Below are positions 25,487 to 49,257 of a stretch of DNA of 64,000 nt, one piece after another (the first letter of the stretch is position 1; each line of letters begins with the position of its first letter). The notes beneath the pieces were generated by a model that did not search any database, had not been told where the DNA came from, and saw only the letters and a list, made by a program, of their open reading frames with translations. The DNA comes from Thermodesulfobacteriota bacterium (lineage in GTDB: Bacteria; Desulfobacterota; WTBG01; CAIYCZ01; CAIRTM01). The stretch spans positions 4,160-68,159 of the forward strand of contig JANQFE010000054.1 of assembly GCA_028278025.1 (NCBI GenBank), given 5' to 3'. Position numbers and translations under genes: made by a program.

Positions 25487-26554
25487 TTACAGATACTTTT
25501 TTCTATCATCATCCTCTTTCAGCAGTTCTACCACCCCTTTAACATCCTGGACTTTATCTGCATCGCAAATCAGCAGGGCATCCTCTGTATCCACAACAAT
25601 AAGATTGCTTACGCCCACAACGGCAGTAAGTTTTTTGGGAGAGTGCACCAGGTTGGACTGGGAATCTATGGCAACCACATCCCCACGCAGCACATTTTCG
25701 TTTTCATCCTTTGGGGAAAGATCAAATATTGCCGACCAGCTTCCGATATCATTCCAGCCAAAATCACCCGTGAGCGTAAGCACATTGGTTGTCTTTTCCA
25801 ACACACCATAGTCAATGGAGATGGAAACGGTTCTTTCATATGCGGATATGATTGCCTGTTCGATATCAGGCGTGTGCCACAAAGGTTCAATCGCTGTAAT
25901 GGTGGAATATAGTTCGGGAAGGTGTTTTTCTATTTCCTGCAGAATAGTAGACACCTTCCATACAAACATACCGCTGTTCCACAGGTAATTGCCTTTTTGA
26001 AGGTACTCCGCGGCTTTTTGTGCATCCGGTTTTTCATGGAAACAGGTAACCCGGCAGGTTTGCGATTCTCCATCCAGCTGTCGGTCAAACTCTATATAGC
26101 CGTAACCGGTCTCGGGTGCCTGTGGTTTAATACCGATAGTGATCAGTGTACTGTGTGTGCGAGCCGCTTCTTCGGCCTTATGAATACACCTGTAGAAAGC
26201 CTCGCGGTCAGCAATGTAATGATCGGCCGGTAAAACAGCCATTACTGCTTCAGGATCACGCTGGTGTATCCAGGTTGCCGCAAGACAAATACATGCGGCC
26301 GTATTCCTGCCAAAGGGCTCGGCAATGATGTTCTCTGCAGGTAATTGGGGAAGCTGGGCTTTTAGTTCCTGCGCCTGCTGCTTATTGGTAACTACTATAA
26401 TCCTGTCATGATCAACAAGCGGTTCAATTCTTTCTACCGTTTCCTGTATCATGGTCTTACTGCTGATAATATCAAGGAGCTGCTTAGGCTTGGCAGCCCT
26501 GCTTCGGGGCCAAAAGCGTGTTCCTTTACCACCTGCCATGATTACGACGTACAT
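25487..26554 (-). CDS. manC: Mannose-1-phosphate guanylyltransferase (GDP-mannose pyrophosphorylase)
   Basis: VVIMAGGKGTRFWP and the nucleotidyl-transferase fold. The start was placed at MYVVIM. Confidence 0.8.
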   Translation of the reverse strand: MYVVIMAGGKGTRFWPRSRAAKPKQLLDIISSKTMIQETVERIEPLVDHDRIIVVTNKQQAQELKAQLPQLPAENIIAEPFGRNTAACICLAATWIHQRDPEAVMAVLPADHYIADREAFYRCIHKAEEAARTHSTLITIGIKPQAPETGYGYIEFDRQLDGESQTCRVTCFHEKPDAQKAAEYLQKGNYLWNSGMFVWKVSTILQEIEKHLPELYSTITAIEPLWHTPDIEQAIISAYERTVSISIDYGVLEKTTNVLTLTGDFGWNDIGSWSAIFDLSPKDENENVLRGDVVAIDSQSNLVHSPKKLTAVVGVSNLIVVDTEDALLICDADKVQDVKGVVELLKEDDDRKKYL

Positions 26555-26598
26555 ATGCTCCTCCTTCCCGAAGAATTTTTCACTCATCAAACAAGGGG

Positions 26599-27387
26599 TT
26601 ATACTTTACAGGCATCACGCCAGTCCCCTAAAAACAGGAGCAGCTCTTCCGGTGGGACCAACCATATATCTGCACTGGTGGAGCGCAGCTCCCGGCGTAC
26701 CAGTATGCGCAGTCCTTTTCCCTCAAGCTCATGAAATGCATCTTCATCGGTAGTATCATCACCCAGGTATGCAGCTGCACAATCAGCATCTGATTCAGAA
26801 AGTATCTGCCGCACGGCATCACCCTTATTTTTGCCGGGTATTCTGAATTCGAACCCGCCATCAAATTCTTTTAGTTCAAGATGGTTGCTATGCGGAATAA
26901 GGAACCAGTTGTCCTTAACCTTTTCTTTAATCAGCTCAATGCGTCTTTGGCCCAATCCCCGCCAATGCAAAGCAACGCATGCCGGTTTGGGTTCACACAG
27001 CTCGTATAGACCTTCTTGCTGGAGCCAGTCCTCGGCACAGGTAAGTGCTTTAAGAGCATGCTCGGGTATTGCAGCAATCCGGCAGGAACTGTCCGGCAGC
27101 ATTCTTTCCCAGCCATGGGAGCCCCAGATTTCCGGTCTCCTGTTCAGGTGTATAAGCTTAAGCAAATCTTTTGTCCAGCGCCCGCTAACCAGCACAACTC
27201 TACACAACTGTGTCTCCATAATGGCATTTAATAACTCTTCTACACCTTTATATGGTACAGCCTCGTCCCTTTTGGTTTTAAACGGGGCCAGCGTACCGTC
27301 ATAATCAAGCATAAGAATACGCTGACGGGACTCGGCCAGTCGAGCAAAAAAATCATTTAATGCTATTTTATTGTTAAGTACTTTCAA
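26599..27387 (-). CDS. otsB: Trehalose-6-phosphate phosphatase-like HAD-IIB phosphatase
   Basis: LDYDGTL and YLGDDTTDEDAF are signatures of OtsB-type phosphatases. Confidence 0.65.
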   Translation of the reverse strand: MKVLNNKIALNDFFARLAESRQRILMLDYDGTLAPFKTKRDEAVPYKGVEELLNAIMETQLCRVVLVSGRWTKDLLKLIHLNRRPEIWGSHGWERMLPDSSCRIAAIPEHALKALTCAEDWLQQEGLYELCEPKPACVALHWRGLGQRRIELIKEKVKDNWFLIPHSNHLELKEFDGGFEFRIPGKNKGDAVRQILSESDADCAAAYLGDDTTDEDAFHELEGKGLRILVRRELRSTSADIWLVPPEELLLFLGDWRDACKV

Positions 27388-27454
27388 TATTTTATCTATA
27401 TTGTATAATATTTTATGTTAAGTAAAAAAAATTGGGCAGATTACCGGTAAATTT

Positions 27455-28123
27455 CTATACAGGCTGATTTATAAGTCGCACAACCGGCGTGCTCTCAAAA
27501 AAATCAATAATATTCAAACAGGCATAGGCCTGGTCAATTTTAACAAGGTTATTAAGGTCAAGCCCCAGCACGTGACACAGAATCACCCTGTTGACACCCC
27601 CATGCGCTACAAGCAAAATATTTTCTCCCCTGTGCTTTTTGATACATGCCTCAAGTTGAGGAATAACCCGTTCATATACGTCCTTGAAACTTTCACCACC
27701 GCTAACTCTGAATGTTGCCAGATTTGATGATCGTTCATCAAATTCCTCTTTATACTCAGTTACTATTTCCTCAAGGGTCATGCCTTCCCAATGACCGATA
27801 TTAATCTCACGAAATTCCTTATAGCTCACCGGGGTAAGACCGATCATTGCACCAATAATCTCAGCTGATTTTACACATCGCTGTAAATCACTTGCCAGCA
27901 CGTGATGTATATTTTCCTGCAGCAGCCGTATGCCAAGCTTTTTTATCTGATTAACACCATTATCATTAAGTTCAACATCCATGTGGCCTACATAGCGCCA
28001 TTCTCTGGACGTTGTCAATTCACCATGCCGCACCAGATACAGCCGTGTCCTGTTATCACTATTACTTTCGAGTTCCTGCTGGATTGAAACTGTTTTATGC
28101 ATTGTGACTTGTTGGCTGCTCAT
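27455..28123 (-). CDS. Histidine phosphatase family protein (phosphoglycerate-mutase-like)
   Basis: LVRHGE … AHGG match the catalytic motifs. Confidence 0.7.
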   Translation of the reverse strand: MSSQQVTMHKTVSIQQELESNSDNRTRLYLVRHGELTTSREWRYVGHMDVELNDNGVNQIKKLGIRLLQENIHHVLASDLQRCVKSAEIIGAMIGLTPVSYKEFREINIGHWEGMTLEEIVTEYKEEFDERSSNLATFRVSGGESFKDVYERVIPQLEACIKKHRGENILLVAHGGVNRVILCHVLGLDLNNLVKIDQAYACLNIIDFFESTPVVRLINQPV

Positions 28124-28257: not shown

Positions 28258-30441
28258 TCACAGGTGCATATTGTCACGAATCATGCGAACAAGAGTTGCA
28301 TTTTCACCGTGACCTGTCATGTTTGCCGTTATCTTACCCTTGATAGGACGACCCAGTAAATACAGGTCACCCATCATATCCAGAATTTTGTGCCGGACAA
28401 ATTCATCCGGAAACCTGAGGTCAGTATTAATAATTTTTTCATCATCTATCAAGATGAAATTATTTAACCGACCGCCATCGGCCAAGCCCTTTTGTGACAA
28501 CGCTTCGATATCTTTCACAAATCCAAATGTGCGTGCAGGTGCAATTTCATTTTTAAAAACTTCTTCATCATCCAAGACAAAGGTAAATTCCTGAACCCCT
28601 ATGGGCTTAGGATAACGCAGCGTATAATGAATTGAAAATTTTTCCGATGGTTCAACTACAACAAATTTACTTTTGGGGTTAACATCACCAACAGTATAAC
28701 GATCAGTAATAACAATTTCTTCCAGTTCCTCATCCTGTTCCTCGATGCCGGCATCTTCAATAATCTGGCAGAAGTCAACTGCAGATCCATCCATAATTGG
28801 TACTTCATTGTTGATTTTAATCATCAGATTAGTTATGCGGTAGGCATGCAGGGCCGCAAGAAAATGTTCTGTGGTGCGGGCAACAGTGTTTGTGCTTTGC
28901 AAACACGTTGCATAGTCGGTTGACACAACATAGTCTATATCAGCAGGAATAGTTTCACCACTGGAAATACTGCCAAAAATAATTCCGCTGTTTGGCGGCA
29001 GGGGTGTCAGCATAAGACCGGTCTTGTCCCCTGAATGCAGTCCGCGACCGCTCATGACCATGCTGCGCTTGAGGGTTCTTTGAAGCCGTTTCCTGGTCTT
29101 TTTCTCACGCCCGAAGACAATACCATATTCCTTAATATATTTCTTTAAATTTTTCTCCTTAATATATAATTTTTTAGATGTTTTTTTAACATCCTTATCA
29201 TTTTTTCTAAGATGATAAAGAATATAATTTTTTCTCCAAGCAGCTTCTGCTTCTTCAAAGCTTTTATACCGTTCATAGAACCGGGCCATGCTGGATTGCA
29301 TATCATCTCGCAATGAAAGCGGAATATCATGGGCGGAAATATTCTTGGTCGGGACTGAAACAACCAGTTTTTCAGCCAGATTTTTGACTTCCTTCACATT
29401 ACCAGGCCAATCATAATTTACCAGTATTTCAACAGCATCATCTTCCAGATGTTTCTCCCTGAACCCATACTCCTCACAAAATTGTGAAATAAAAAATGTA
29501 AGCAGTAAAGGTATATCAGACCTCCTATGCCGTAATGCGGGCACACGCAGAGTATGACTGAAACATTCCAGCAGCTCAGGCTGAAAAACGCCTGCCTCTA
29601 CAATATCATCCGGGTCTTTTATCGTTGCTGCAATAATTCGCATTCCGGATTCTTTATGTTTTGATGATGAAATACTTTTAGTAATTCGTTTTTGTAATTT
29701 GACCGGTAGTGCATCAACTGCCTCAAGAAACACCGTACAGTCTGAAGTGTTTTGCAAAATGCCCTGCTTTGCGGAAGCCTCTTCTTTGCTCTTGTGAGAG
29801 CCAAAAAGCTTCACTTCAAGTTCCTGAGGGCTATAAAACGAACAATTAATTTTTATAAAAGAGACCGCATCTTTTTTTGACTGGGCATGTATATGCCAAG
29901 CAATCAATTCTTTCCCGCTGCCAAGCTCGCCCTGGAGAAAGATATGCTCATTGTGTGTGGCCAACTGTCCAATCTCTTCCTTTATAACCAAAACAGCAGG
30001 TGTTTCCCCTGTCAAGTCAGGCACAATCTCTTCGTCTACCGGCTTCTCAGGCTGCACAGCAGTTGTAGAAGCTTTTTGTTTCTCGGTAACTTTTTTGATG
30101 ATATTAATTACCGTATCCAGAGAAAATGGTTTTTCCAGGAAATCAAATGCTCCCTGCTTTACAGCCTGGACTGCGGTGTTGACAGTACCATGCCCTGTCA
30201 TCATAACTACATCAATATCGGAATCAAAATCCTTGATTGCCGTGAGTGTTGTCATTCCATCCATTTCCGGAAGCCATATGTCAAGGAAAACAATGTCGAC
30301 CGGTTGGAATTTGATTATCTCCATTGCTTTCATTCCATCCGAAGCAGTCAAGACAATGTACCCCTCATCCTCAAGACTGCCGCGCAATGAATTCACAATC
30401 GTATTTTCATCATCAACCAGTAAGATTACCGGGGTCTTCAT
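28258..30441 (-). CDS. lpxC: Fusion protein: NtrX-like response regulator (REC + degenerate sigma54 AAA+ + Fis HTH) fused to complete LpxC, UDP-3-O-acyl-N-acetylglucosamine deacetylase
   Basis: The N-terminus is a REC domain (LLVDDE…DIVFLDIWLPEMDG). This is followed by a sigma54-type AAA+ domain with Walker A GELGSGKE but without a GAFTGA loop, and then a Fis-like HTH. The C-terminal 274 aa (about 28261..29082) carry all LpxC hallmarks: QRTLKR, GLHSG, TEHFLAAL, PIMDGSA, ARTFGF..DIE.L…GLA.GG, FVRHKILDMMGD and TGHGEN. A single continuous frame of 727 aa runs through all of these. Confidence 0.8.
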   Translation of the reverse strand: MKTPVILLVDDENTIVNSLRGSLEDEGYIVLTASDGMKAMEIIKFQPVDIVFLDIWLPEMDGMTTLTAIKDFDSDIDVVMMTGHGTVNTAVQAVKQGAFDFLEKPFSLDTVINIIKKVTEKQKASTTAVQPEKPVDEEIVPDLTGETPAVLVIKEEIGQLATHNEHIFLQGELGSGKELIAWHIHAQSKKDAVSFIKINCSFYSPQELEVKLFGSHKSKEEASAKQGILQNTSDCTVFLEAVDALPVKLQKRITKSISSSKHKESGMRIIAATIKDPDDIVEAGVFQPELLECFSHTLRVPALRHRRSDIPLLLTFFISQFCEEYGFREKHLEDDAVEILVNYDWPGNVKEVKNLAEKLVVSVPTKNISAHDIPLSLRDDMQSSMARFYERYKSFEEAEAAWRKNYILYHLRKNDKDVKKTSKKLYIKEKNLKKYIKEYGIVFGREKKTRKRLQRTLKRSMVMSGRGLHSGDKTGLMLTPLPPNSGIIFGSISSGETIPADIDYVVSTDYATCLQSTNTVARTTEHFLAALHAYRITNLMIKINNEVPIMDGSAVDFCQIIEDAGIEEQDEELEEIVITDRYTVGDVNPKSKFVVVEPSEKFSIHYTLRYPKPIGVQEFTFVLDDEEVFKNEIAPARTFGFVKDIEALSQKGLADGGRLNNFILIDDEKIINTDLRFPDEFVRHKILDMMGDLYLLGRPIKGKITANMTGHGENATLVRMIRDNMHL

Positions 30442-30533: not shown

Positions 30534-32774
30534 TTATATATTTACTTTCTGGCGTACCGGCAGTTCAATAACAAAACAGGTTCCCTTGGGCTTATTATCA
30601 CGTACGCGGATGTATCCGCTATGGTCTGCAATAATCGTATTTACTATTGCCAGCCCCAGTCCGGTGCCGCCCTTTTTAGTGGAAAAATTAGGCTCAAAAA
30701 GTTTAGACTTTAGTTGGGGTTGTATGCCGTAGCCGGTATCCGCAATTTCAATAGTAACAACCTCCTGGGCATCATTGTAGTGGGTACGGATTGTTACCGT
30801 GCCACCATTTTCCATGGAGTCAACTGCATTGTCAAGCAGATTAATCAGGGCTCTCTTTATTTGATCTCTATCAAGGTTAAAGCGCTTTACGGCCTCACCC
30901 TTTATAAATTTAAACGTTATATCTTTATGTGCTTCTTTGTACAAAAGCAGGGTCTCATCTATGATCTCATGCAAATCATTGGGAAGGGGTTTTGTGGCAG
31001 GCATTCGTGCAAAGTTTGAAAATTCATTAACCAGGGTTTTCAGTTCATCAACCTGGTTGATAATAGTCCATGTACATTCATCAAAAATTTTAGCCTCATG
31101 ATTAATCTGGGACTGAAATTTTTTTCTCAGGCGCTGTGCAGATAGTTTAATTGGCGTAAGCGGGTTTTTAACCTCGTGGGCAATTTTACTTGCAACTTCC
31201 TTCCAAGCGTAGGCCCTTTGGGCCTGCTGAATTTGAGTGAGGTCTTCAGCCACAATTACCAGCCCCAAATAATTTTGTTCCTTGTCAAACAGCATGTTGG
31301 AACGTATGTAGAGAAATATTGTCTTTTGTGGAAAAGCAAGTGTGATCTGCTTTTCAGCTGCTCTGAGACAAAATTTATTTATCTCATCTATAAAATCACA
31401 CAGGGGTTGCAGCGGTTCGGAGGCAAAAACTTCTGCATAGGATTTAGCAAGTGCCCTTTCCATCTGAACATCAAGCATTTTCTCAGCAGACTTGTTAAAG
31501 GCCGTAATTATGCCTTCTTTATTAATGGAAATAACCACAGATGCAACATTATCCAGTAAAATTTCCATATATAGTCTGCGGTGATCAAGCTCCCCGATTG
31601 TATCGCGCAAATCATTCGTGGTTGATTCGACCTGCTCCTTGCTCACTTTTAAATCACAGGTCATCTGGTTAAAGGCATTGACCAGACTGCCGATCTCATC
31701 ATCAGTTGCAGGTTCAATCTGAAAATCAAGGTTGCCCTGGGAAACTTGATGGGTCGCATCAGCAAGCGAGCTTATCGGTACAGTAATAACCTTAGACAAA
31801 TGGAATCCAAACCACGTTGCAGAAAATATTATTAATAGTGTCACTACAGACAGCAGAATCATATAAATAAGCTTTATAGGATTTTTGTAAATTTTAAGCT
31901 GTTTGTACTCCTGAAATGCCCGGGAGATTGTATCCATTTTGGAAACAAGGCTCTGTGGCACATAATAATTAACAACTACTACTCCAACCACGTCTTTACG
32001 CTTCCAGGTAGAAAGCACGGGTACGACACCTCGTATAATGTCACCTTCGCCGGCTGGTTGTATACGGGTAACCTCTTTGCCCTCCAGAGCCTGCTGCACT
32101 AATGAGGACTCTGCGCTGATAAAATCGCTGTCAGGTATATTAGGATTCATTATTTTAAGAAGTTCTTCACGCTGAGATGAAAACACCTCCACTACTCCCA
32201 GATTATATTCCACCTGCTTTTCCGTTACATACTCTTCAAGATTGTCCAGATTTTTCTCATTAAGCAGTTTTTTATCTGTAATTTTACCGCTTATCTGACG
32301 TGCATAATAAAGGGCATTAGCAGCAGAACTTTTATAGTATACCTCAGCCACATTGAGTGACTCTTCAAGAGAACTTTCAACTTTAAAACTGAACCAATTC
32401 TCTATGGTATTTGTTATGAAACCGATGGAGACCCAAAAAAGCAGCAGGGTTGGTATAAGCGACAGGCCAACAAAGGCCATGACCAGTTTAGTTCTGAGCT
32501 TTGAGCCGAGAATGCCTTTCCTGCGTTCAAAAAAAAGTTTAACAACATTGCGCACAACCAGAAATATAAGCAGCAAAAGCAGCATCGCATTAACATTTAT
32601 AAGACTGAAAACCAGGATGTTTTGAGGCAGTAAGGCTTCGCCTTTCAGTCCGCTCAGATATACAAGCAGTGATGTCAGTACGACCACCAGAAGGATAACA
32701 ACTATTATTATAGTTCTTTCACGTCTGCGCCTTTTCTTTTCCGCTTTCTGCTGTTTGTGTAATTCTTCGTTCAT
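30534..32774 (-). CDS. ntrY: NtrY-like sensor histidine kinase (TM-HAMP-PAS-HisKA-HATPase)
   Basis: N-terminal TM segments, HAMP and PAS domains, the H-box AHEVKNPLTPIKLSAQRL (NtrY signature) and the HATPase G-boxes. Confidence 0.8.
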   Translation of the reverse strand: MNEELHKQQKAEKKRRRRERTIIIVVILLVVVLTSLLVYLSGLKGEALLPQNILVFSLINVNAMLLLLLIFLVVRNVVKLFFERRKGILGSKLRTKLVMAFVGLSLIPTLLLFWVSIGFITNTIENWFSFKVESSLEESLNVAEVYYKSSAANALYYARQISGKITDKKLLNEKNLDNLEEYVTEKQVEYNLGVVEVFSSQREELLKIMNPNIPDSDFISAESSLVQQALEGKEVTRIQPAGEGDIIRGVVPVLSTWKRKDVVGVVVVNYYVPQSLVSKMDTISRAFQEYKQLKIYKNPIKLIYMILLSVVTLLIIFSATWFGFHLSKVITVPISSLADATHQVSQGNLDFQIEPATDDEIGSLVNAFNQMTCDLKVSKEQVESTTNDLRDTIGELDHRRLYMEILLDNVASVVISINKEGIITAFNKSAEKMLDVQMERALAKSYAEVFASEPLQPLCDFIDEINKFCLRAAEKQITLAFPQKTIFLYIRSNMLFDKEQNYLGLVIVAEDLTQIQQAQRAYAWKEVASKIAHEVKNPLTPIKLSAQRLRKKFQSQINHEAKIFDECTWTIINQVDELKTLVNEFSNFARMPATKPLPNDLHEIIDETLLLYKEAHKDITFKFIKGEAVKRFNLDRDQIKRALINLLDNAVDSMENGGTVTIRTHYNDAQEVVTIEIADTGYGIQPQLKSKLFEPNFSTKKGGTGLGLAIVNTIIADHSGYIRVRDNKPKGTCFVIELPVRQKVNI

Positions 32775-38007: not shown

Positions 38008-38155
38008 GGTAAAAAGATCAAGAGATTAAAAAGTTTTGTCACTCATTACTCATCACCTTTTACCCCTTGACTCGGCAATTCCTTTCCATTATACTTCCAC
38101 AGAATAGTATAACCATACAAAAATTCATTAATAATTCATTGTGTGATGGTATTCC

Positions 38156-39013
38156 ATGAAGGTATCGGTGGTTATCCCTGCCCATAACGAAAGCCACTCA
38201 ATTGGGAGGGTTATTACATCCGTGCGTAACAAAGTTCCGGGATGCGAAATTTTTGTGGTTAATGATGCTTCTACCGACGACACAGTAAAAATTGCCCAGG
38301 AGGCAGGCGCCTGGGTTTTTAGCCATCCTTACAATATGGGAAACGGTGCGGCAGTTAAAACCGGCATACGCATGGCAACAGGTGATAAGATCGTTTTAAT
38401 AGATGGAGATGGACAACATAATCCTGAGGATATCCCCCGTTTGTTAGAGGCTTCCAAGAATTATGATATGGTGGTTGGTGCGCGCAGCCCCCGAACCCAG
38501 GCAAACATACTCAGAAGATGTGCTAATTTCATGTACAATATCCTGGCCAGTTATGTTACCAGAAGAAAAATTAAGGACTTGACCTCAGGGTTTCGGGTGG
38601 TAGATCGTAAAACAGTTTTAAATTACCTAAGCCTGCTTCCAAATACTTTTTCCTATCCCACCACCATTACATTATCGTATTTGCGCAGCGGTAGATCCGT
38701 ATGTTATATCCCCATACATGCGGGCAAAAGACGTGGAAAAAGTAAAATACGGCTCCTGCGTGATGGTGTCCGCTTTTTCTTAATTATCATTAAAATATCC
38801 ACACTTTTTTCACCGCTGCTGATCTTTTTACCGGTGAGTTTTACTTCCTTTATGATTGGAATGCTGTACTATGCTTACACCTACCTTGCCCAGCACCGTT
38901 TTACTAATATGTCGGCACTTTTATTTATCAGCTCTGTAATAATCTTTATGATGGGACTTATAAGTGAACAGATAACACAGCTGCGCTATGATCGCCTGGA
39001 TAACGGCGGCTAA
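38156..39013 (+). CDS. GT2-family polyprenyl-phosphate glycosyltransferase (DPM1/ArnC/GtrB-like) with C-terminal TM helices
   Basis: VVIPAHNE, VNDASTD and DGDGQH (DxD) motifs, followed by C-terminal hydrophobic segments. Confidence 0.8.
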   Translation: MKVSVVIPAHNESHSIGRVITSVRNKVPGCEIFVVNDASTDDTVKIAQEAGAWVFSHPYNMGNGAAVKTGIRMATGDKIVLIDGDGQHNPEDIPRLLEASKNYDMVVGARSPRTQANILRRCANFMYNILASYVTRRKIKDLTSGFRVVDRKTVLNYLSLLPNTFSYPTTITLSYLRSGRSVCYIPIHAGKRRGKSKIRLLRDGVRFFLIIIKISTLFSPLLIFLPVSFTSFMIGMLYYAYTYLAQHRFTNMSALLFISSVIIFMMGLISEQITQLRYDRLDNGG

Positions 39014-39026
39014 CAGGAACCTGTAT

Positions 39027-41264
39027 ATGGCACGTAAAAAAAAGCAAAGGGCCAGCAGTAAAAAAAAAACAGCTGCACCGGCAGCTACCCTTACAAAAGG
39101 CAAAGATTCAAAGATAATCAATATTTCAAAAAAAGGGGCGGTTTCGGCTGAAAACTTTTTTAAAAGCCTGTCAAAATATAGCCGCTGGATAGAGATTTGC
39201 GCGCTTGTGGCAATTATTGTCACCGGCGTTCTTTTTCGTCTGGAAGACCTGAGCCAGTGGCAGAACCGTGAACAGAAAGCCTTTTTTGATAATCAGCCTC
39301 TGCACACTACATTTGATGCGTGGTTTTATCTAAGCCTTGCTAAAGATATTGCCGAAGACACCTATTATCCTATTGACGAAAAGCGCGGTGTCCCTGACAG
39401 TCCTCCCCGCCCTTCCCCGCCACCGCTTATTTCTTGCCTGACTGCTGTAATTGCAAAAACAACATCATTTTCTATGAGCTGGATTGGTGCCATACTGCCT
39501 CCTCTGCTTGGTCCTCTGCTTGCTATTCCGCTGTTTTTGCTCGGACGCTACTATGGCGGTCCTATTATGGGACTCAGCGCTGCGCTGATGGCGCTTCTCT
39601 ATCCATTCTATGTATACCGGAGTAATGTGGGCAGGTTCGATACAGACTGTATGAATGTTACCTGGGCTGCATGTGCTGCGTATCTTTTTTTAAGGTTCGG
39701 CATTCTGGAAACAAAAAAAAGATACATTTATTTGCTCGGCGGGTTTATCGTGTATGCGCTGTTTTTATGGTGGTGGGATCAGACTCCTGCCGTAGTGGGC
39801 GCCATTACGTTTCTTCCTCTGGCAGTAGCTCTGGCATTATTCTATCGCCCGCCCAAAAAAGAAGCCTTCCTGCTGTATGGCGGTCTTGGTGCCGGAGTGG
39901 TCATACTTCTTGCAGTTAACGGTATTGCTATGCCGGTAAAAATCTTACAGTCAATCTGGCACCAGTATCTGTATATTACCAAGGATGCCTCCGGAGATTT
40001 CCCCAACATCGGCCTTACCATAAGCGAGCAGTCCCGGCCGTCTTTTGACCTGGTATTAGGCTATACCACAAAGAACATCCTTGCCTTTGTTTTTAGTGTT
40101 GCCGGAATTATTTTGCTTGTGTGGAAACGTTTTAAAGATGCCCTTTTTCTGCTTTCTTTGATTATTTTATCTATTATGGCGGTCACCACTGCAAACCGTT
40201 TCCTGATTTTCCTGATTCCCATCCTGGCGCTCGGCGCGGGCTTTTCCCTGTCGATGCTCTGGGGCCTTCGTAAGCAATTCACAGCGCTTACAGTTGTTTG
40301 CCCCGTGCTGATACTGTGTATGTGCATCCCGCTCTATAAGGCCAATTCAGATTACGTGCAGTGGCCTAAAGAATCCGCGCCTATCATTGCCGGCATGGAC
40401 ACTGCCAAAAAGAAAACACCTTCAGACGCTGTAATCTGGGCCTGGTGGGACCATGGGTATGCCCTTACTTACTATGCCCGGCGTGCCACCATCAATGACG
40501 GTTCCATTCACAGCGGTGAACGAACCGTATATACGGGAATCCCGCTTGCTACAGACAGTTTTCAGCTTGCTGCAAACTTTATGCAATTCTACGTCATCCG
40601 CGGCATGAAGGGCATCAAGAAATTACACAATGCAACTGATGATAATCCCGGCAGCGGGTTAACCCTGCTTAAGAAGATCCTCCGCGCCGGCCCTGATAAA
40701 GGCCGGGCACTTATAGCAGAGGCTAACTTGAAGCCGGTTGGAAACTGGAAAACTGTTGATGACTGGCTGCGATTCTTTTATCCTCCCGAAAAGCGCCCGG
40801 TTTACCTGTTCGTTGACAACCTTTTAACTAAGACCAGCTACTGGTGGCACTGGTTCGGCACCTGGGACATGCAAAAGCAGGAAGGCCTTCACCCCGTGTA
40901 CCAGCCTTTCTACAACGTTAAGAAAAAAGGTGGCATGATAAGAGGCACCGGCGGGCTGCAAATAAATATGGAGACAGGTGATCTTTACACAAAAAACAAT
41001 CGCATCAAAATATCTAATTTGTTAATCCGCAAGAAAAAGGATATTAAAGAACAAAATTACGGCACTAAAAAAGGTTATAGATTTGAGATGCTTGAGCAGG
41101 CTCGCTACGGTGCCCTGATGGATGCACGAATTTCAGAATCAGTTTTTAATAAACTGTTTATCCGCCATATCTTTCCGAAAAAATATTTCCGCCCCGTAGA
41201 AATCAACTCCCCGTTTTATCAGCTCTGGGAAGTCCGGGGTGATTCCCTCCCAGATGCTGCCTGA
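39027..41264 (+). CDS. AglB/PglB/STT3-family oligosaccharyltransferase homologue
   Basis: About 13 predicted TM helices and then a soluble domain containing WAWWDHGY, a variant of the WWDYG catalytic motif. The start was placed at MARKKKQ to avoid overlapping the GT2 gene. Confidence 0.6.
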   Translation: MARKKKQRASSKKKTAAPAATLTKGKDSKIINISKKGAVSAENFFKSLSKYSRWIEICALVAIIVTGVLFRLEDLSQWQNREQKAFFDNQPLHTTFDAWFYLSLAKDIAEDTYYPIDEKRGVPDSPPRPSPPPLISCLTAVIAKTTSFSMSWIGAILPPLLGPLLAIPLFLLGRYYGGPIMGLSAALMALLYPFYVYRSNVGRFDTDCMNVTWAACAAYLFLRFGILETKKRYIYLLGGFIVYALFLWWWDQTPAVVGAITFLPLAVALALFYRPPKKEAFLLYGGLGAGVVILLAVNGIAMPVKILQSIWHQYLYITKDASGDFPNIGLTISEQSRPSFDLVLGYTTKNILAFVFSVAGIILLVWKRFKDALFLLSLIILSIMAVTTANRFLIFLIPILALGAGFSLSMLWGLRKQFTALTVVCPVLILCMCIPLYKANSDYVQWPKESAPIIAGMDTAKKKTPSDAVIWAWWDHGYALTYYARRATINDGSIHSGERTVYTGIPLATDSFQLAANFMQFYVIRGMKGIKKLHNATDDNPGSGLTLLKKILRAGPDKGRALIAEANLKPVGNWKTVDDWLRFFYPPEKRPVYLFVDNLLTKTSYWWHWFGTWDMQKQEGLHPVYQPFYNVKKKGGMIRGTGGLQINMETGDLYTKNNRIKISNLLIRKKKDIKEQNYGTKKGYRFEMLEQARYGALMDARISESVFNKLFIRHIFPKKYFRPVEINSPFYQLWEVRGDSLPDAA

Positions 41265-41313
41265 AACATCTTATTTCCTTTAGATAGAGTAAAGCTGCGG
41301 GACGGCGCAAAAA

Positions 41314-41415
41314 AATCGCCCGGCTCCCAAAGCCACGAAACAGAGCCGGGCGATAAAAAAGTTGTCCCGGATATGAGGGGTTTAAGGTAGGAAATCACCC
41401 GGGACAACTGTATGT
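41314..41415 (-). terminator. Two consecutive stem-loops with T-tracts on the minus strand (TCGCCCGGCTC…GAGCCGGGCGA and GTTGTCCCGG…CCGGGACAAC), terminator candidates
   Basis: Perfect 11-bp and 10-bp inverted repeats read from the sequence. On the minus strand each is followed by TTTTTT(T). They sit between the convergent OST gene and the GGR-family gene. Confidence 0.4.
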
Positions 41416-41687
41416 AATTATAAAAAATATAATACAAAAAATGTGCCATCACAGCTTTATATAGCCGACAAAAACAAATCCAGCAAAATTAGATAATTAC
41501 ACTATTCCAGGTATTTGTGCTGCAAGGAGGATAATCAGGACTTGTCTTACCGTGCAAGAGAAGTCTTGAGGAGCAAGACAAGTGCTTTATAGTTATAGGG
41601 GAGAAAACATATTGTTTTCGATGCAATAAATTTCTTGCGAATTGCGGACTTGCCCTGACGCATCGTGGTTATTTTTGAAGCCAACGG

Positions 41688-42959
41688 TCAGGCCAGCACC
41701 ATGCTGTCCAGGGCTTTAATTTTTTCATGGATTTCAGGTTTTTCACGAGCGATTCGATCCTGATGACGAAGAATGGACTCCCACATCAATCGTGGTGTTT
41801 TGTACTGACTCAAGGTTCCCTCAAGCACTTCATCCTCCGTCAGGGAAAACAGGTAATCCAACTCATCATCATTATAGGTGGGGGAGAGTGAATACCCTTG
41901 CGCAACCCGCAAAAAATCACTACTATTAAATTCAAAGGTATCATTCCACCACCTGGTGTATTCACTGAATCCTTTTTTTCCCTGCAGCTCACGGACAATT
42001 GCAATTCCTGCATGATAGCCGCACATGATACCACCCTGAACCTGCACCTCGACAAATGCAGCTGCATCACCAATAAGCAGAGCACTGTCCTTGTACGGGA
42101 CGGGGATGGTGCTGCAGGCCTTGAGGGTACACCCTGTAGTTTCGACCACTTCGGCATCTTCAAACATGTAGGCCAGTGGGCTTTGGGTGGTGAAATAATG
42201 AAAGATCTCTTTCGGTTTCAGCTCCGTGTCCCCTGACACCAGAAGGTCCATGGTGTTGTCCCCCAAAAGGGTTGGCCCCATGAGAATCGGGCGCTTTGAG
42301 CCGTAAACTAATCCGTTGGCATTTTTAAAGGTATGGGGCTCAAACCCTTTGACTCCTTCCATTACGGTCATGATACAAAGTGCCGTTGTAAAATGGGTGC
42401 GGTTTTGATTGAAACCAAGACAGGCTGCGAGTTTTGAATTTACTCCATCGGCAACAATCAGCTTCTTAGCCCGCAGCTTTTGTTCCTTTCCACCCCTGCT
42501 GAAGCGAACGGAGATACCCTCCGGGCTGTTGTGGGCATCACGGGTAATGGCACTATTGATAAACTCTACCCCCAGCCTTTCACACTGCTGCAACAGCTGC
42601 TGTAGCAGGCGACCCTTGTCATATCGCAGCCCAATGGGTTGTCGGCCCTGATGAGAAAAGTGTATTTTGTGCCCCCTGGGAGAAAGATAATACTTTTCAT
42701 TAATATCAACTGTCGGCCCATCGTAATCTATTTCAAAATTGTTTCGGGTAAAAACAATCTTTCCTTGTTTAACACTGATGCCTTCATTTTGATAATCATT
42801 ATCCATAATGAGCATCTGACAGCAGGAACGGGTTATTCTTGATATATCCCTCTGTTTTTCCACTAGGACCACCTTCAGGCCCTGTTGAGCTGCGGTGATG
42901 GCGGCCTGTAGACCAGCCGGCCCAGCTCCCACAATGATTACATCCCATTTTTTTTCCAT
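41688..42959 (-). CDS. FAD-dependent oxidoreductase of the geranylgeranyl reductase family
   Basis: DVIIVGAGPAG is a Rossmann FAD motif. The …LIGDAAAFV… region and overall length match GGR-family reductases. Confidence 0.7.
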   Translation of the reverse strand: MEKKWDVIIVGAGPAGLQAAITAAQQGLKVVLVEKQRDISRITRSCCQMLIMDNDYQNEGISVKQGKIVFTRNNFEIDYDGPTVDINEKYYLSPRGHKIHFSHQGRQPIGLRYDKGRLLQQLLQQCERLGVEFINSAITRDAHNSPEGISVRFSRGGKEQKLRAKKLIVADGVNSKLAACLGFNQNRTHFTTALCIMTVMEGVKGFEPHTFKNANGLVYGSKRPILMGPTLLGDNTMDLLVSGDTELKPKEIFHYFTTQSPLAYMFEDAEVVETTGCTLKACSTIPVPYKDSALLIGDAAAFVEVQVQGGIMCGYHAGIAIVRELQGKKGFSEYTRWWNDTFEFNSSDFLRVAQGYSLSPTYNDDELDYLFSLTEDEVLEGTLSQYKTPRLMWESILRHQDRIAREKPEIHEKIKALDSMVLA

Positions 42960-44926: not shown

Positions 44927-45718
44927 TCAGTTGTTTTTATTGGAAACGTGTCGTGTCCATCGCTGCCATGGCCGGTAGTCCATTTTTCTGAATTCTACGT
45001 TGGTGATTGTTGCCTCTTTGACGGTTATCCTGCTTCCCACCATCATCTGTTTAAACATCGTCCGGCACTTATCCGGGGAAATTTTTCTTGCGCTTGCCTG
45101 TGCCTCGTATGGAATAAACTCCTTTAAATTTTTTTCAAATTCAGGATCACTACCTTCAATAAGTTCCGCGGTTCCGCTAAACTGTATGCAAAGGAGTTTG
45201 GTAAATGATTCATATTCACGATGCCAGTTAATGCTGACCCTGGGGTTTTGCTGTATGTGGAAAAGCTTTGCGGTGCCTTTTTCATGAATACCGTAAAGGG
45301 TCATTTCACTCGGGTCCAGGGTAAATTCTGCTGTTGTACTTAAGGGCGTGTTATTAACACAGGTGGAAAGTACACAGGTCTTACTTTGTTTTTTTCCACC
45401 CATAACATCTGCAATGGCCTTCTCTATTTTATCACGGGACATCATTCCCTCTTTGGCATTAAAATCGGCATAATCTCCTGAAAGCCAGACCTGTGTCGCA
45501 GTGGTTTTTGCATCCAGTTTAATTTCATGACAGTCCACGCAGCTAACTCCTGCTCCTACCTCTGGATGATTTTCCTGTATCTCTTCAGACGCTTCAATTT
45601 TTTTTGCCTCTTTTACATCCCTTCCGTCATTTTCTGCAGACAGTGTTGATATCATACAAACAAAAATTATTGCAAAACAGCCCGCAATAACTGTAAATGC
45701 GTTGTTTCTCCTTGCCAT
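44927..45718 (-). CDS. Secreted protein with a single CxxCH haem-binding motif and a PNPOx-like (general-stress-protein-26-type) FMN-binding fold
   Basis: Signal peptide, GVSCVDCHEI, and a C-terminal region resembling the pyridoxamine-5'-phosphate-oxidase-like fold. Confidence 0.45.
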   Translation of the reverse strand: MARRNNAFTVIAGCFAIIFVCMISTLSAENDGRDVKEAKKIEASEEIQENHPEVGAGVSCVDCHEIKLDAKTTATQVWLSGDYADFNAKEGMMSRDKIEKAIADVMGGKKQSKTCVLSTCVNNTPLSTTAEFTLDPSEMTLYGIHEKGTAKLFHIQQNPRVSINWHREYESFTKLLCIQFSGTAELIEGSDPEFEKNLKEFIPYEAQASARKISPDKCRTMFKQMMVGSRITVKEATITNVEFRKMDYRPWQRWTRHVSNKNN

Positions 45719-48629: not shown

Positions 48630-49247
48630 TTACTTCTGAATAAATTCTCTAATTAAGCTCTTAAGGGCCCTTAGCGCGTCACCAGCAGTATAGTCGATAG
48701 CTCTATTCTGATACTGACCGTAGTACAGCCCGTCCAAAACGGCCCGGATGCTTCCCCCCAGAATGGCTCTCAGGAGGCTAGGTTTGTATATCGAATTAAA
48801 TAGACCGGCTTTTTGACCAGCGAGAATGACGCCATCAATGGTTTGCATCAAAGTGGCGTTCTCGTTGTAGATTTTACGGCGCTTGCCAAGTAGTTTTTTG
48901 TTCTTAACCACTGAAATCTGGGGCCAGGCTTCACTGAGCACTTTCATTACGGGCAGTTTATCGTCTTGATTACAAAGGGATAAGAAATTGTCCACAATAC
49001 CCAACAAGGCCTCCACCGGATTAAGTGTTTTTTTGATCACCTCCTGGCTGCTTTGGTTCAACTTTTGGAAAAACCCCAGCACGATGGAGAGAATGATGTC
49101 ATCTTTGTTGAGAAAATAGGAGTATATCAGTCCGGTTGAAAAGCCCGAAGCTTTCACAATGCCGGTGATGGTGGCATTGTGATAACCGTTCTCGGCGAAT
49201 ACCCGGGTTGCGGCGATGAGTACTTTCTGTTTTTTTTCTTTATTCAT
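48630..49247 (-). CDS. TetR/AcrR-family transcriptional regulator
   Basis: The N-terminal HTH (AATRVFAENGYHNATITGIVKASGFSTGLIYSYF) is the classic TetR_N domain. It is flanked by palindromic operators. Confidence 0.85.
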   Translation of the reverse strand: MNKEKKQKVLIAATRVFAENGYHNATITGIVKASGFSTGLIYSYFLNKDDIILSIVLGFFQKLNQSSQEVIKKTLNPVEALLGIVDNFLSLCNQDDKLPVMKVLSEAWPQISVVKNKKLLGKRRKIYNENATLMQTIDGVILAGQKAGLFNSIYKPSLLRAILGGSIRAVLDGLYYGQYQNRAIDYTAGDALRALKSLIREFIQK

Positions 49248-49257
49248 GACCAATATA

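Follow-up and report, generated by a model that had tools for sequence, protein, structure and literature searches.

A polyprenyl-phosphate glycosyltransferase gene paired with a PglB-lineage oligosaccharyltransferase gene in a Thermodesulfobacteriota genome: a candidate protein N-glycosylation unit

A 64,000-nucleotide (nt) stretch of genomic DNA from a Thermodesulfobacteriota bacterium (contig JANQFE010000054.1, positions 4,160 to 68,159 of the forward strand; hereafter the window) carries, closely spaced on its plus strand, a glycosyltransferase family 2 (GT2) gene and a gene for an STT3-family protein. This arrangement raises the question of whether the two genes form a protein N-glycosylation unit and, if they do, which lipid-linked donor that unit would use. 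On balance, we favor the reading that they constitute a two-gene unit in which the GT2 protein would make a polyprenyl-monophosphate-linked sugar and the STT3 enzyme would pass this sugar, or a glycan, to asparagine. A first-pass annotation made from the sequence alone had proposed an N-glycosylation module of these two genes and a third, convergent gene for a flavoprotein thought to saturate the lipid carrier; the GT2 and STT3/PglB calls in that proposal stand, whereas the flavoprotein link and the dolichol-like saturated carrier do not.

By sequence and by predicted structure, the 745-amino-acid (aa) product of the second gene belongs with the STT3-family oligosaccharyltransferases (GT66), and among these with the bacterial PglB lineage. 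The profile searches that the first-pass annotation had named as a check on its STT3/PglB call give PF02516 (STT3) at E 4.6e-22, with 79.5 bits against a cutoff of 24.5, and PF21436 (STT3/PglB core) at E 7.9e-11, with 43 bits against a cutoff of 23. When the protein was compared with PDB sequences by phmmer, only Campylobacter lari and C. jejuni PglB were returned (E ~1e-18); a profile built from 17 family members reaches PglB at E 1e-36 over nearly full length, and eukaryotic STT3 only at E 2e-3. Identity to PglB is ~18-19%, the score against the PglB equivalog model NF050801 is 103.9 bits where the cutoff is 1300, and orthology with PglB is excluded.

The AlphaFold2 (AF2) model of the STT3 protein (predicted local distance difference test, pLDDT, 84.9; predicted template modeling score, pTM, 0.81) has a Lys/Arg-rich cytoplasmic N-terminal tail (15 Lys/Arg), 13 transmembrane (TM) helices and a periplasmic domain spanning residues 443-745. 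Model and hydropathy agree on about 13 TM helices and a domain in the periplasm, as had been expected, and the WWDHG segment is predicted to lie on the periplasmic side within this C-terminal domain, not in the cytoplasm. A Foldseek search with this model places PglB first (6GXC/5OGL/3RCE; E 5e-29, TM-score 0.72-0.76 over ~740 columns), followed by eukaryotic STT3 and Archaeoglobus fulgidus AglB (E ~1e-12 to 1e-10). By contrast, ArnT, AftA, DPY19 and PMT appear only at E 1e-4 to 1e-2, and a grouping of the protein with ArnT or PMT is thereby ruled out.

The residues on which PglB relies for catalysis have counterparts in the window protein (Table 1). Equivalences were taken from HMMER and profile alignments to C. 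lari PglB (5OGL), and conservation was counted over 256 full-length members of the STT3 family, more than 98% of which keep the catalytic residues. Both the DxD motif and the external loop 5 motif that had been listed for checking are present, as D205/D207 and T-I-S-E334. The WAWWDHGY segment, first read as a variant of WWDYG, indeed aligns with PglB WWDYGY, with His at the fourth position of WWDHG where PglB has Tyr. The last Tyr of this segment, Y478, corresponds to PglB Tyr468, which reads the N-acetyl group of the sugar; the roles of WWD and of Tyr468 are described in PMC10859629. Y478 hints at N-acetylhexosamine as the transferred sugar. In the alignment with the PglB 'MI' motif, where the window protein has L600-T-K-T603, Leu or Met occupies the first position in 208 of the 256 members, and Thr, Ile or Val the fourth in 181. 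Finally, Tyr346 aligns, in an external loop 5 alignment of modest reliability, with PglB Arg331, the residue that reads the acidic side chain at sequon position -2. Lys or Arg fills this position in most of the remaining family members, and the loop alignment suggests that the window enzyme would lack the -2 acidic requirement.

The sequon-reading motif is less uniform across the family than the catalytic apparatus. The WWD triad is intact in 187 of the 256 members (73%) and altered in the remaining 69, for example to SWG, DWG, NWG or TWE, and such members (L055, L062 and L066 among them) keep the catalytic Asp, Glu and Arg. This decay is unexpected because the motif has been called strictly conserved in STT3 proteins (PMC10859629). 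It suggests a loss of +2 Ser/Thr reading in part of the clade, and some of the decayed members may have shifted to other acceptors. One could therefore ask whether the window protein is a Gtr-type periplasmic glycosyltransferase acting on something other than a sequon Asn, such as a glycan or lipid, or a residue of another kind. The loss of WWD alongside retained catalytic residues speaks for such a reading, as does the layout of a synthase gene beside a gene for a GT-C-fold glycosyltransferase, which matches three-component glycan-modifying systems (PMC11127046). The window protein and its near relatives, however, retain WWD, a putative MI-type motif and both acidic residues by which PglB holds the acceptor amide, and we consider this alternative quite improbable. 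Because the GT-C partner is here an STT3-family protein with intact sequon-binding motifs, the acceptor to be expected would be Asn in a protein and not O-antigen or lipid A.

The first gene encodes a 285-aa protein that is, judged by sequence and model, a polyprenyl-phosphate glycosyltransferase of the GtrB/ArnC/DPMS/AglJ type. It matches PF00535 at E 3.1e-30 and carries the motifs SVVIPAHNE and DGDGQH, the second of which, within LIDGDGQH, holds a DxD-type metal site (D83-G-D85) whose two Asp residues are invariant in 18 orthologues. Hydropathy places two hydrophobic helices at the C-terminus (~residues 204-240 and 249-274). Together with the family and structure matches, these helices bear out its original description as a DPM1/ArnC-like GT2 enzyme with C-terminal TM helices. 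Among curated families, the best match is AglJ (TIGR04182), at 135 bits over full length, short of the equivalog cutoff of 325; the PpgS model (93 bits, cutoff 370) and the ArnC model (75 bits, cutoff 529) are likewise not reached. The PDB sequences matched are those of ArnC, DPMS and GtrB, with phmmer aligning residues 2-275 to GtrB residues 27-313. The top Foldseek matches of its AF2 model, the TM part of which has low confidence (pLDDT 46-68), are again ArnC, GtrB and DPMS, over ~300 columns.

The two genes follow rnpA, yidC, jag and mnmE on the plus strand, after a gap of 148 nt. The spacer of 13 nt between the GT2 stop codon and the STT3 ATG, and the length of the downstream product, are as had been annotated. 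A longer STT3 open reading frame (ORF) of 758 aa could begin at 38988, and we prefer the start at 39027 because the N-termini of homologues support it. The gap upstream of the GT2 gene holds a single promoter-like site (Table 1), and the GC content of the GT2/STT3 region equals that of the remainder of the window. Downstream of the STT3 gene, no intrinsic terminator was found between 41265 and 41687 apart from minus-strand or weak hairpins. Two inverted repeats of 10 base pairs (41317-41352 and 41361-41409) lie within this 423-nt gap before the flavoprotein gene; an A7 run borders the first on the plus strand, so that this repeat would read as a terminator on the minus strand only.

We compared 80 related STT3 loci from species-representative genomes, 61 of which were informative (at least 1 kb on both flanks). 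Of these 61, 33 have a gene for a TM-anchored GT2 directly beside STT3; with 6 truncated loci of the same arrangement, the total comes to 39. In these 39 the GT2 gene lies downstream in 23, upstream in 13 and on the opposite strand in 3. The paired loci span at least 8 flanking contexts, for example yidC-jag-mnmE, as in the window, or glnE with heptosyltransferase genes. The adjacent GT2 proteins belong to two subfamilies that are 28% identical to each other, both with C-terminal TM segments, and one metagenome-assembled genome (DTYO01; L012 and L039) encodes a pair of STT3 paralogues that share 52% identity, and the GT2 gene that follows the one is of a different subtype from that following the other. 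In the cultured bacterium Dissulfurirhabdus thermomarina the GT2-STT3 pair stands alone amid flagellar and fatty-acid genes. We infer that the GT2 and STT3 proteins work in one pathway.

Other glycosylation-related genes also occur near STT3. A glycosyltransferase family 4 (GT4) gene adjoins it in 17 loci. In the closest relatives (L002-L005, L010, L015 and L089), the region 3' of STT3 holds a convergent GT4 gene, a lipoprotein-like gene with a weak GNA1162-like match, a small multidrug resistance (SMR) gene whose product is ArnE/F-like with 4 TM helices, and a gene for a decaprenyl-phosphate phosphoribosyltransferase (DPPR synthase; 289 bits, above the cutoff of 234). This set is not present in the window, where the flavoprotein cluster occupies its place.

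The GT2 gene also has a life apart from STT3. Its orthologues are well conserved, with identities of 62-78% among the 120 best matches listed and of 56-71% in the 80 metagenome loci kept, and they occur more widely than the STT3 gene does. We rejected the idea that the GT2 protein is dedicated to STT3 because an STT3 gene lies next door in only 8 of those 80 metagenome loci; partners of this family further include GT4 genes and GT-C candidates other than STT3. A GT-C-type candidate lies within 3 kb of the GT2 orthologue in 23 of the 47 loci of at least 5 kb; the candidates in these 47 loci include STT3 (5), PMT_2-type proteins (7) and a ~700-aa protein with tetratricopeptide repeats (TPR; 13). 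In Desulfacinum hydrothermale, Desulfosoma caldarium and genome FWPV01 (L085, L086 and L088), a GT2 orthologue 65-68% identical to that of the window stands at the head of a cluster in which GT4/GT2 genes are joined by a methyltransferase gene and a Wzx-type flippase gene, and no phosphoglycosyltransferase was called within 8 kb of the GT2 gene in any of them. BacA and DedA-type (VTT) genes lie upstream of the cluster in Desulfacinum and Desulfosoma. This distribution fits a lipid-monophosphate-sugar synthase that would feed periplasmic GT-C enzymes, with STT3 as one partner.

The TPR-bearing candidates form a recognizable type of their own: they run to ~700-790 aa, contain 10-11 TM helices, carry an acidic motif in their first external loop, and have their TPR repeats at the C-terminus. 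The GT2 orthologue directly follows the gene for such a protein in L107, L116, L120, L123, L128, L130, L137 and others, and one or two prepilin-type (N_methyl) genes often precede it. The set of prepilin, TPR-bearing GT-C and GT2 genes could be a pilin glycosylation unit.

These observations bear on the nature of the donor. A motif scan for initiating phosphoglycosyltransferases over ~1.2 Mb around the 80 STT3 loci used DE[LIVM]PQ, which we take to represent PglC/WbaP, and N..[ND]..DG.DG[LI], which we take to represent WecA/MraY, and gave one match, WbaP-like. We favor a donor linked through a monophosphate because the best curated match of the GT2 protein is AglJ and because this single phosphoglycosyltransferase motif was met near 80 loci; a further reason is that GT2 orthologues adjoin other GT-C enzymes or head clusters free of phosphoglycosyltransferase genes. 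The donor would then follow either the AglJ/AglB style or a Gtr-like three-component logic, rather than the diphosphate chemistry of Campylobacter. The more specific proposal, that STT3 transferases of this kind take the monophosphate sugar of their partner GT2 (a single sugar or a short glycan) in archaeal or Gtr style, and that they do so widely in Thermodesulfobacteriota, we put forward tentatively.

In such a pathway, the GT2 protein would charge undecaprenyl phosphate with a sugar. The lipid-linked sugar, perhaps first extended by GT4/GT2 enzymes whose genes lie elsewhere, would then be flipped across the membrane into the periplasm; possible flippase genes in relatives are the ArnE/F-like SMR gene near STT3 in close relatives and Wzx-type genes in others. 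The STT3 enzyme, presumed to use the PglB apparatus of D97, D205/D207, E334 and R391 with a divalent metal, would read N-x-S/T through WWD and L-x-x-T and glycosylate Asn of exported proteins.

Several observations weigh against the monophosphate proposal. The STT3 enzyme is nearer to PglB, an enzyme with a diphosphate donor, than to the AglB of archaea, which gives no match below 0.01 when the 17-member profile is run against the PDB. Tyr478 suits the usual 2-acetamido sugar at the reducing end. A GT2 neighbour is missing from about half of the STT3 loci, and STT3 genes are scarce beside GT2 orthologues, as described above. No flippase gene was found in the window by Pfam scans of 16 ORFs or by tblastn. 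The phosphoglycosyltransferase scan was a motif scan with a positive control for only one of the two enzyme classes, and an initiating phosphoglycosyltransferase may be encoded elsewhere in a genome, like wecA in Escherichia coli.

The foremost rival is accordingly the classical route, in which STT3 would use an undecaprenyl-diphosphate oligosaccharide begun by a phosphoglycosyltransferase from another locus, and the GT2 protein would serve later periplasmic decoration or another envelope glycan. Its appeal lies in the closeness of the STT3 protein to PglB in both sequence and fold, in the correspondence of Y478 to the N-acetyl reader, in the service that the GT2 family gives to other GT-C enzymes, and in the rule that bacterial carriers are diphosphates (PMC10859629). 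Yet neither the window nor most of the paired loci encode another GT-C enzyme to which the GT2 product could go, the GT2-STT3 pairing survives many rearrangements, and the scan around 80 loci gave its lone phosphoglycosyltransferase-like match. We regard the classical route as a serious though rather unlikely explanation, and retain the monophosphate donor as the working proposal.

Further glycosylation genes were sought in the window itself. Pfam scans of 16 ORFs gave only ManC, 12 kb away, and tblastn of the window with the GT4, GT9, SMR, UbiA and other genes of relatives found nothing. No PglC-type phosphoglycosyltransferase, PglK flippase or GT4 elongating enzyme is present among the profile-scanned ORFs, which are a part of the window's total. 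The ManC (mannose-1-phosphate guanylyltransferase) gene lies in a row with trehalose-phosphatase-family and histidine-phosphatase-family genes at 25487-28123 on the minus strand, 10 kb upstream of the GT2 gene; no tie of this row to the GT2-STT3 module was established.

We next consider the third gene of the original proposal, in which a convergently encoded reductase of the geranylgeranyl reductase (GGR) family would saturate the polyprenol carrier and yield a dolichol-like lipid. A flavin adenine dinucleotide (FAD) flavoprotein is indeed encoded convergently, its gene 423 nt from the STT3 stop codon, and it matches the geranylgeranyl reductase superfamily model TIGR02032. That match is partial, covering residues 5-201 only, and its 91.8 bits fall under the cutoff of 158.8, so the family assignment does not hold; similarity to solved structures is limited to the first ~40 residues, which contain the FAD dinucleotide motif. 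In a tblastn search, none of the 80 related STT3 loci showed a homologue, not even those of the closest relatives, for which 10 kb of downstream flank was available and in which a GT4 gene takes the flavoprotein's place. Homologues 48-59% identical are widespread, Clostridium butyricum among their carriers, and in the two contexts looked at they sit beside ferredoxin and thiolase genes or, in Clostridium, beside a paralogue. The gene lies on the opposite strand, as the last of a separate run that extends from 48364 down to 41688. Because of its absence from all 80 loci, its score below the cutoff and the unrelated contexts of its homologues, we excluded the flavoprotein from the module, a decision with which its PDB matches and the distribution of its homologues agree, and we judge the saturated, dolichol-like carrier very improbable indeed.

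The flavoprotein's gene run includes a TetR gene, two large secreted proteins without a known family and a pyridoxamine phosphate oxidase (PNPOx)-like protein with a CxxCH site. BLASTP showed no similarity of the 586-aa and 856-aa signal-peptide proteins of this region to the 880-aa protein, and thus no sign that they are its paralogues.

Table 1. Features of the GT2-STT3 locus and its surroundings. Positions are those of the window; residue equivalents refer to C. lari PglB.
Feature	Position	Strand	Remarks
Promoter-like site TTGACT-17-TATACT	38067-38095	+	In the mnmE-GT2 gap; 10/12 matches in a consensus scan; weak evidence
GT2 gene	38156-39013	+	285 aa; polyprenyl-phosphate glycosyltransferase (GtrB/ArnC/DPMS/AglJ-like)
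GT2 motif SVVIPAHNE	38165-38191	+	
GT2 motif DGDGQH	38402-38419	+	
STT3 gene	39027-41264	+	745 aa; STT3/PglB-type oligosaccharyltransferase homologue
D97, external loop 1	39315-39317	+	PglB D56; kept in 255/256 members
R198	39618-39620	+	PglB R147
D205-T-D207	39639-39647	+	PglB D154-x-D156
T-I-S-E334, external loop 5	40017-40028	+	PglB TIxE with E319; E334 in 255/256
R391	40197-40199	+	PglB R375; kept in 253/256
WAWWDHGY	40437-40460	+	WWD at residues 473-475; variant WWDHG at 473-477; Y478 is PglB Y468
L600-T-K-T603	40824-40835	+	Aligned with the PglB 'MI' motif M569-x-x-I572; alignment only
GGR-superfamily-like FAD flavoprotein gene	41688-42959	-	423 aa; convergent; judged outside the module
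Large signal-peptide protein, 586 aa	43062-44822	-	No Pfam or NCBIfam match
PNPOx-like protein with CxxCH haem site	44927-45718	-	
Large signal-peptide protein, 880 aa	45722-48364	-	No Pfam or NCBIfam match
TetR regulator	48630-49253	-	
Large signal-peptide protein, 856 aa	49538-52108	-	No Pfam match

Elsewhere in the window, Rfam and tRNA scans gave no matches. A 727-aa ORF on the minus strand (28258-30441) joins a response-regulator receiver and a sigma-54 AAA+ domain with its lid to a complete LpxC deacetylase domain, which occupies residues 454-721, where a helix-turn-helix would be expected. An NtrY-like kinase gene (30534-32774) adjoins it. The fusion is no assembly artefact, since a metagenome contig with the same synteny (L089) has it too, as a called protein of 722 aa.

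The STT3 protein itself belongs to a large uncharacterized clade that, judged by its sequence relatives, is found mostly in Thermodesulfobacteriota. It has more than 250 close homologues, 44-67% identical among the 120 listed, and those with names come from Thermodesulfobacteriota, Desulfobulbia, Desulfurivibrionaceae, Thermodesulfobacteriaceae and Dissulfurirhabdus. A family profile search of 1.84 billion cluster representatives returned 3403 at E<=1e-3, of which 658 reach E<=1e-30; with 658 representatives at the stricter threshold, the earlier remark that such systems are rare in bacteria overstates the case for this clade. In the literature searched, which concerned bacterial STT3 phylogeny and bacterial AglJ-like enzymes, no description of the clade or of the WWDHG variant was found.

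What is known of bacterial N-glycosylation comes almost wholly from the PglB of Campylobacter and from a few Desulfovibrio enzymes, and these are all taken to use oligosaccharide donors linked through a diphosphate. If the monophosphate proposal is true, it would widen the known donor chemistry of bacterial oligosaccharyltransferases, blur the divide between archaeal and bacterial monophosphate and diphosphate carriers, and offer compact two-gene modules for glycoengineering. Should the classical pathway hold instead, the window protein would simply be one more PglB-like enzyme from a new lineage. The hypothesis is directly testable, given that cultured organisms carry the relevant genes: the pair in Dissulfurirhabdus thermomarina and the GT2 cluster in Desulfacinum and Desulfosoma.

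Among characterized systems, the closest in the transferase is PglB of C. lari and C. jejuni (3RCE, 5OGL and 6GXC). The window protein shares its fold over the full length, with 13 TM helices followed by a periplasmic domain, has equivalents of D56, R147, D154/D156, E319, R375, WWD and Y468, and has L600-x-x-T603 aligned with the MI motif. It differs in having WWDHG rather than WWDYG and Tyr346 in place of Arg331, and in its low identity of ~18-19%. Around its gene there is no pgl-type cluster with PglC and PglK, and a polyprenyl-phosphate GT2 gene is its partner instead.

A close parallel to the gene partnership is the AglJ-AglB system of Haloferax volcanii, where AglJ puts the first sugar on dolichol phosphate (PMC3871713). 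As there, a GT2 protein whose best curated match is AglJ has its gene linked to that of an STT3-family transferase, and the GT2-headed clusters of Desulfacinum, Desulfosoma and FWPV01, with their glycosyltransferases, methyltransferase and Wzx-type flippase, resemble Haloferax aglJ/G/I/E/P/R (PMC3871713). Unlike AglJ itself, the window GT2 protein scores 135 bits where the family cutoff is 325. Its STT3 partner is of the PglB rather than the AglB lineage, and the carrier, under the present proposal used as the monophosphate, would be undecaprenol.

The GtrA/GtrB/GtrC, ArnC/ArnE-F/ArnT and polyprenyl-phosphoribose systems likewise set a gene for a GtrB/ArnC-fold synthase beside one for a GT-C-fold transferase, and in close relatives an ArnE/F-like SMR gene follows downstream, together with one for a DPPR synthase. 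They differ from the window in their GT-C partner, which is here an STT3-family protein with intact sequon motifs, and no flippase was found in the window. Finally, the PglB homologues of Desulfovibrio (PMC4894442, PMC12229607) are STT3-family enzymes from the former Deltaproteobacteria with a relaxed sequon, and the non-Arg residue at the Arg331 position of the window protein fits a relaxed sequon as well. Those studies deal with Desulfovibrio only, the genus to which the Desulfobacterota survey was confined (PMC12229607), whereas the clade of the window protein takes in Desulfobulbia, Thermodesulfobacteria, Dissulfurirhabdus and others.

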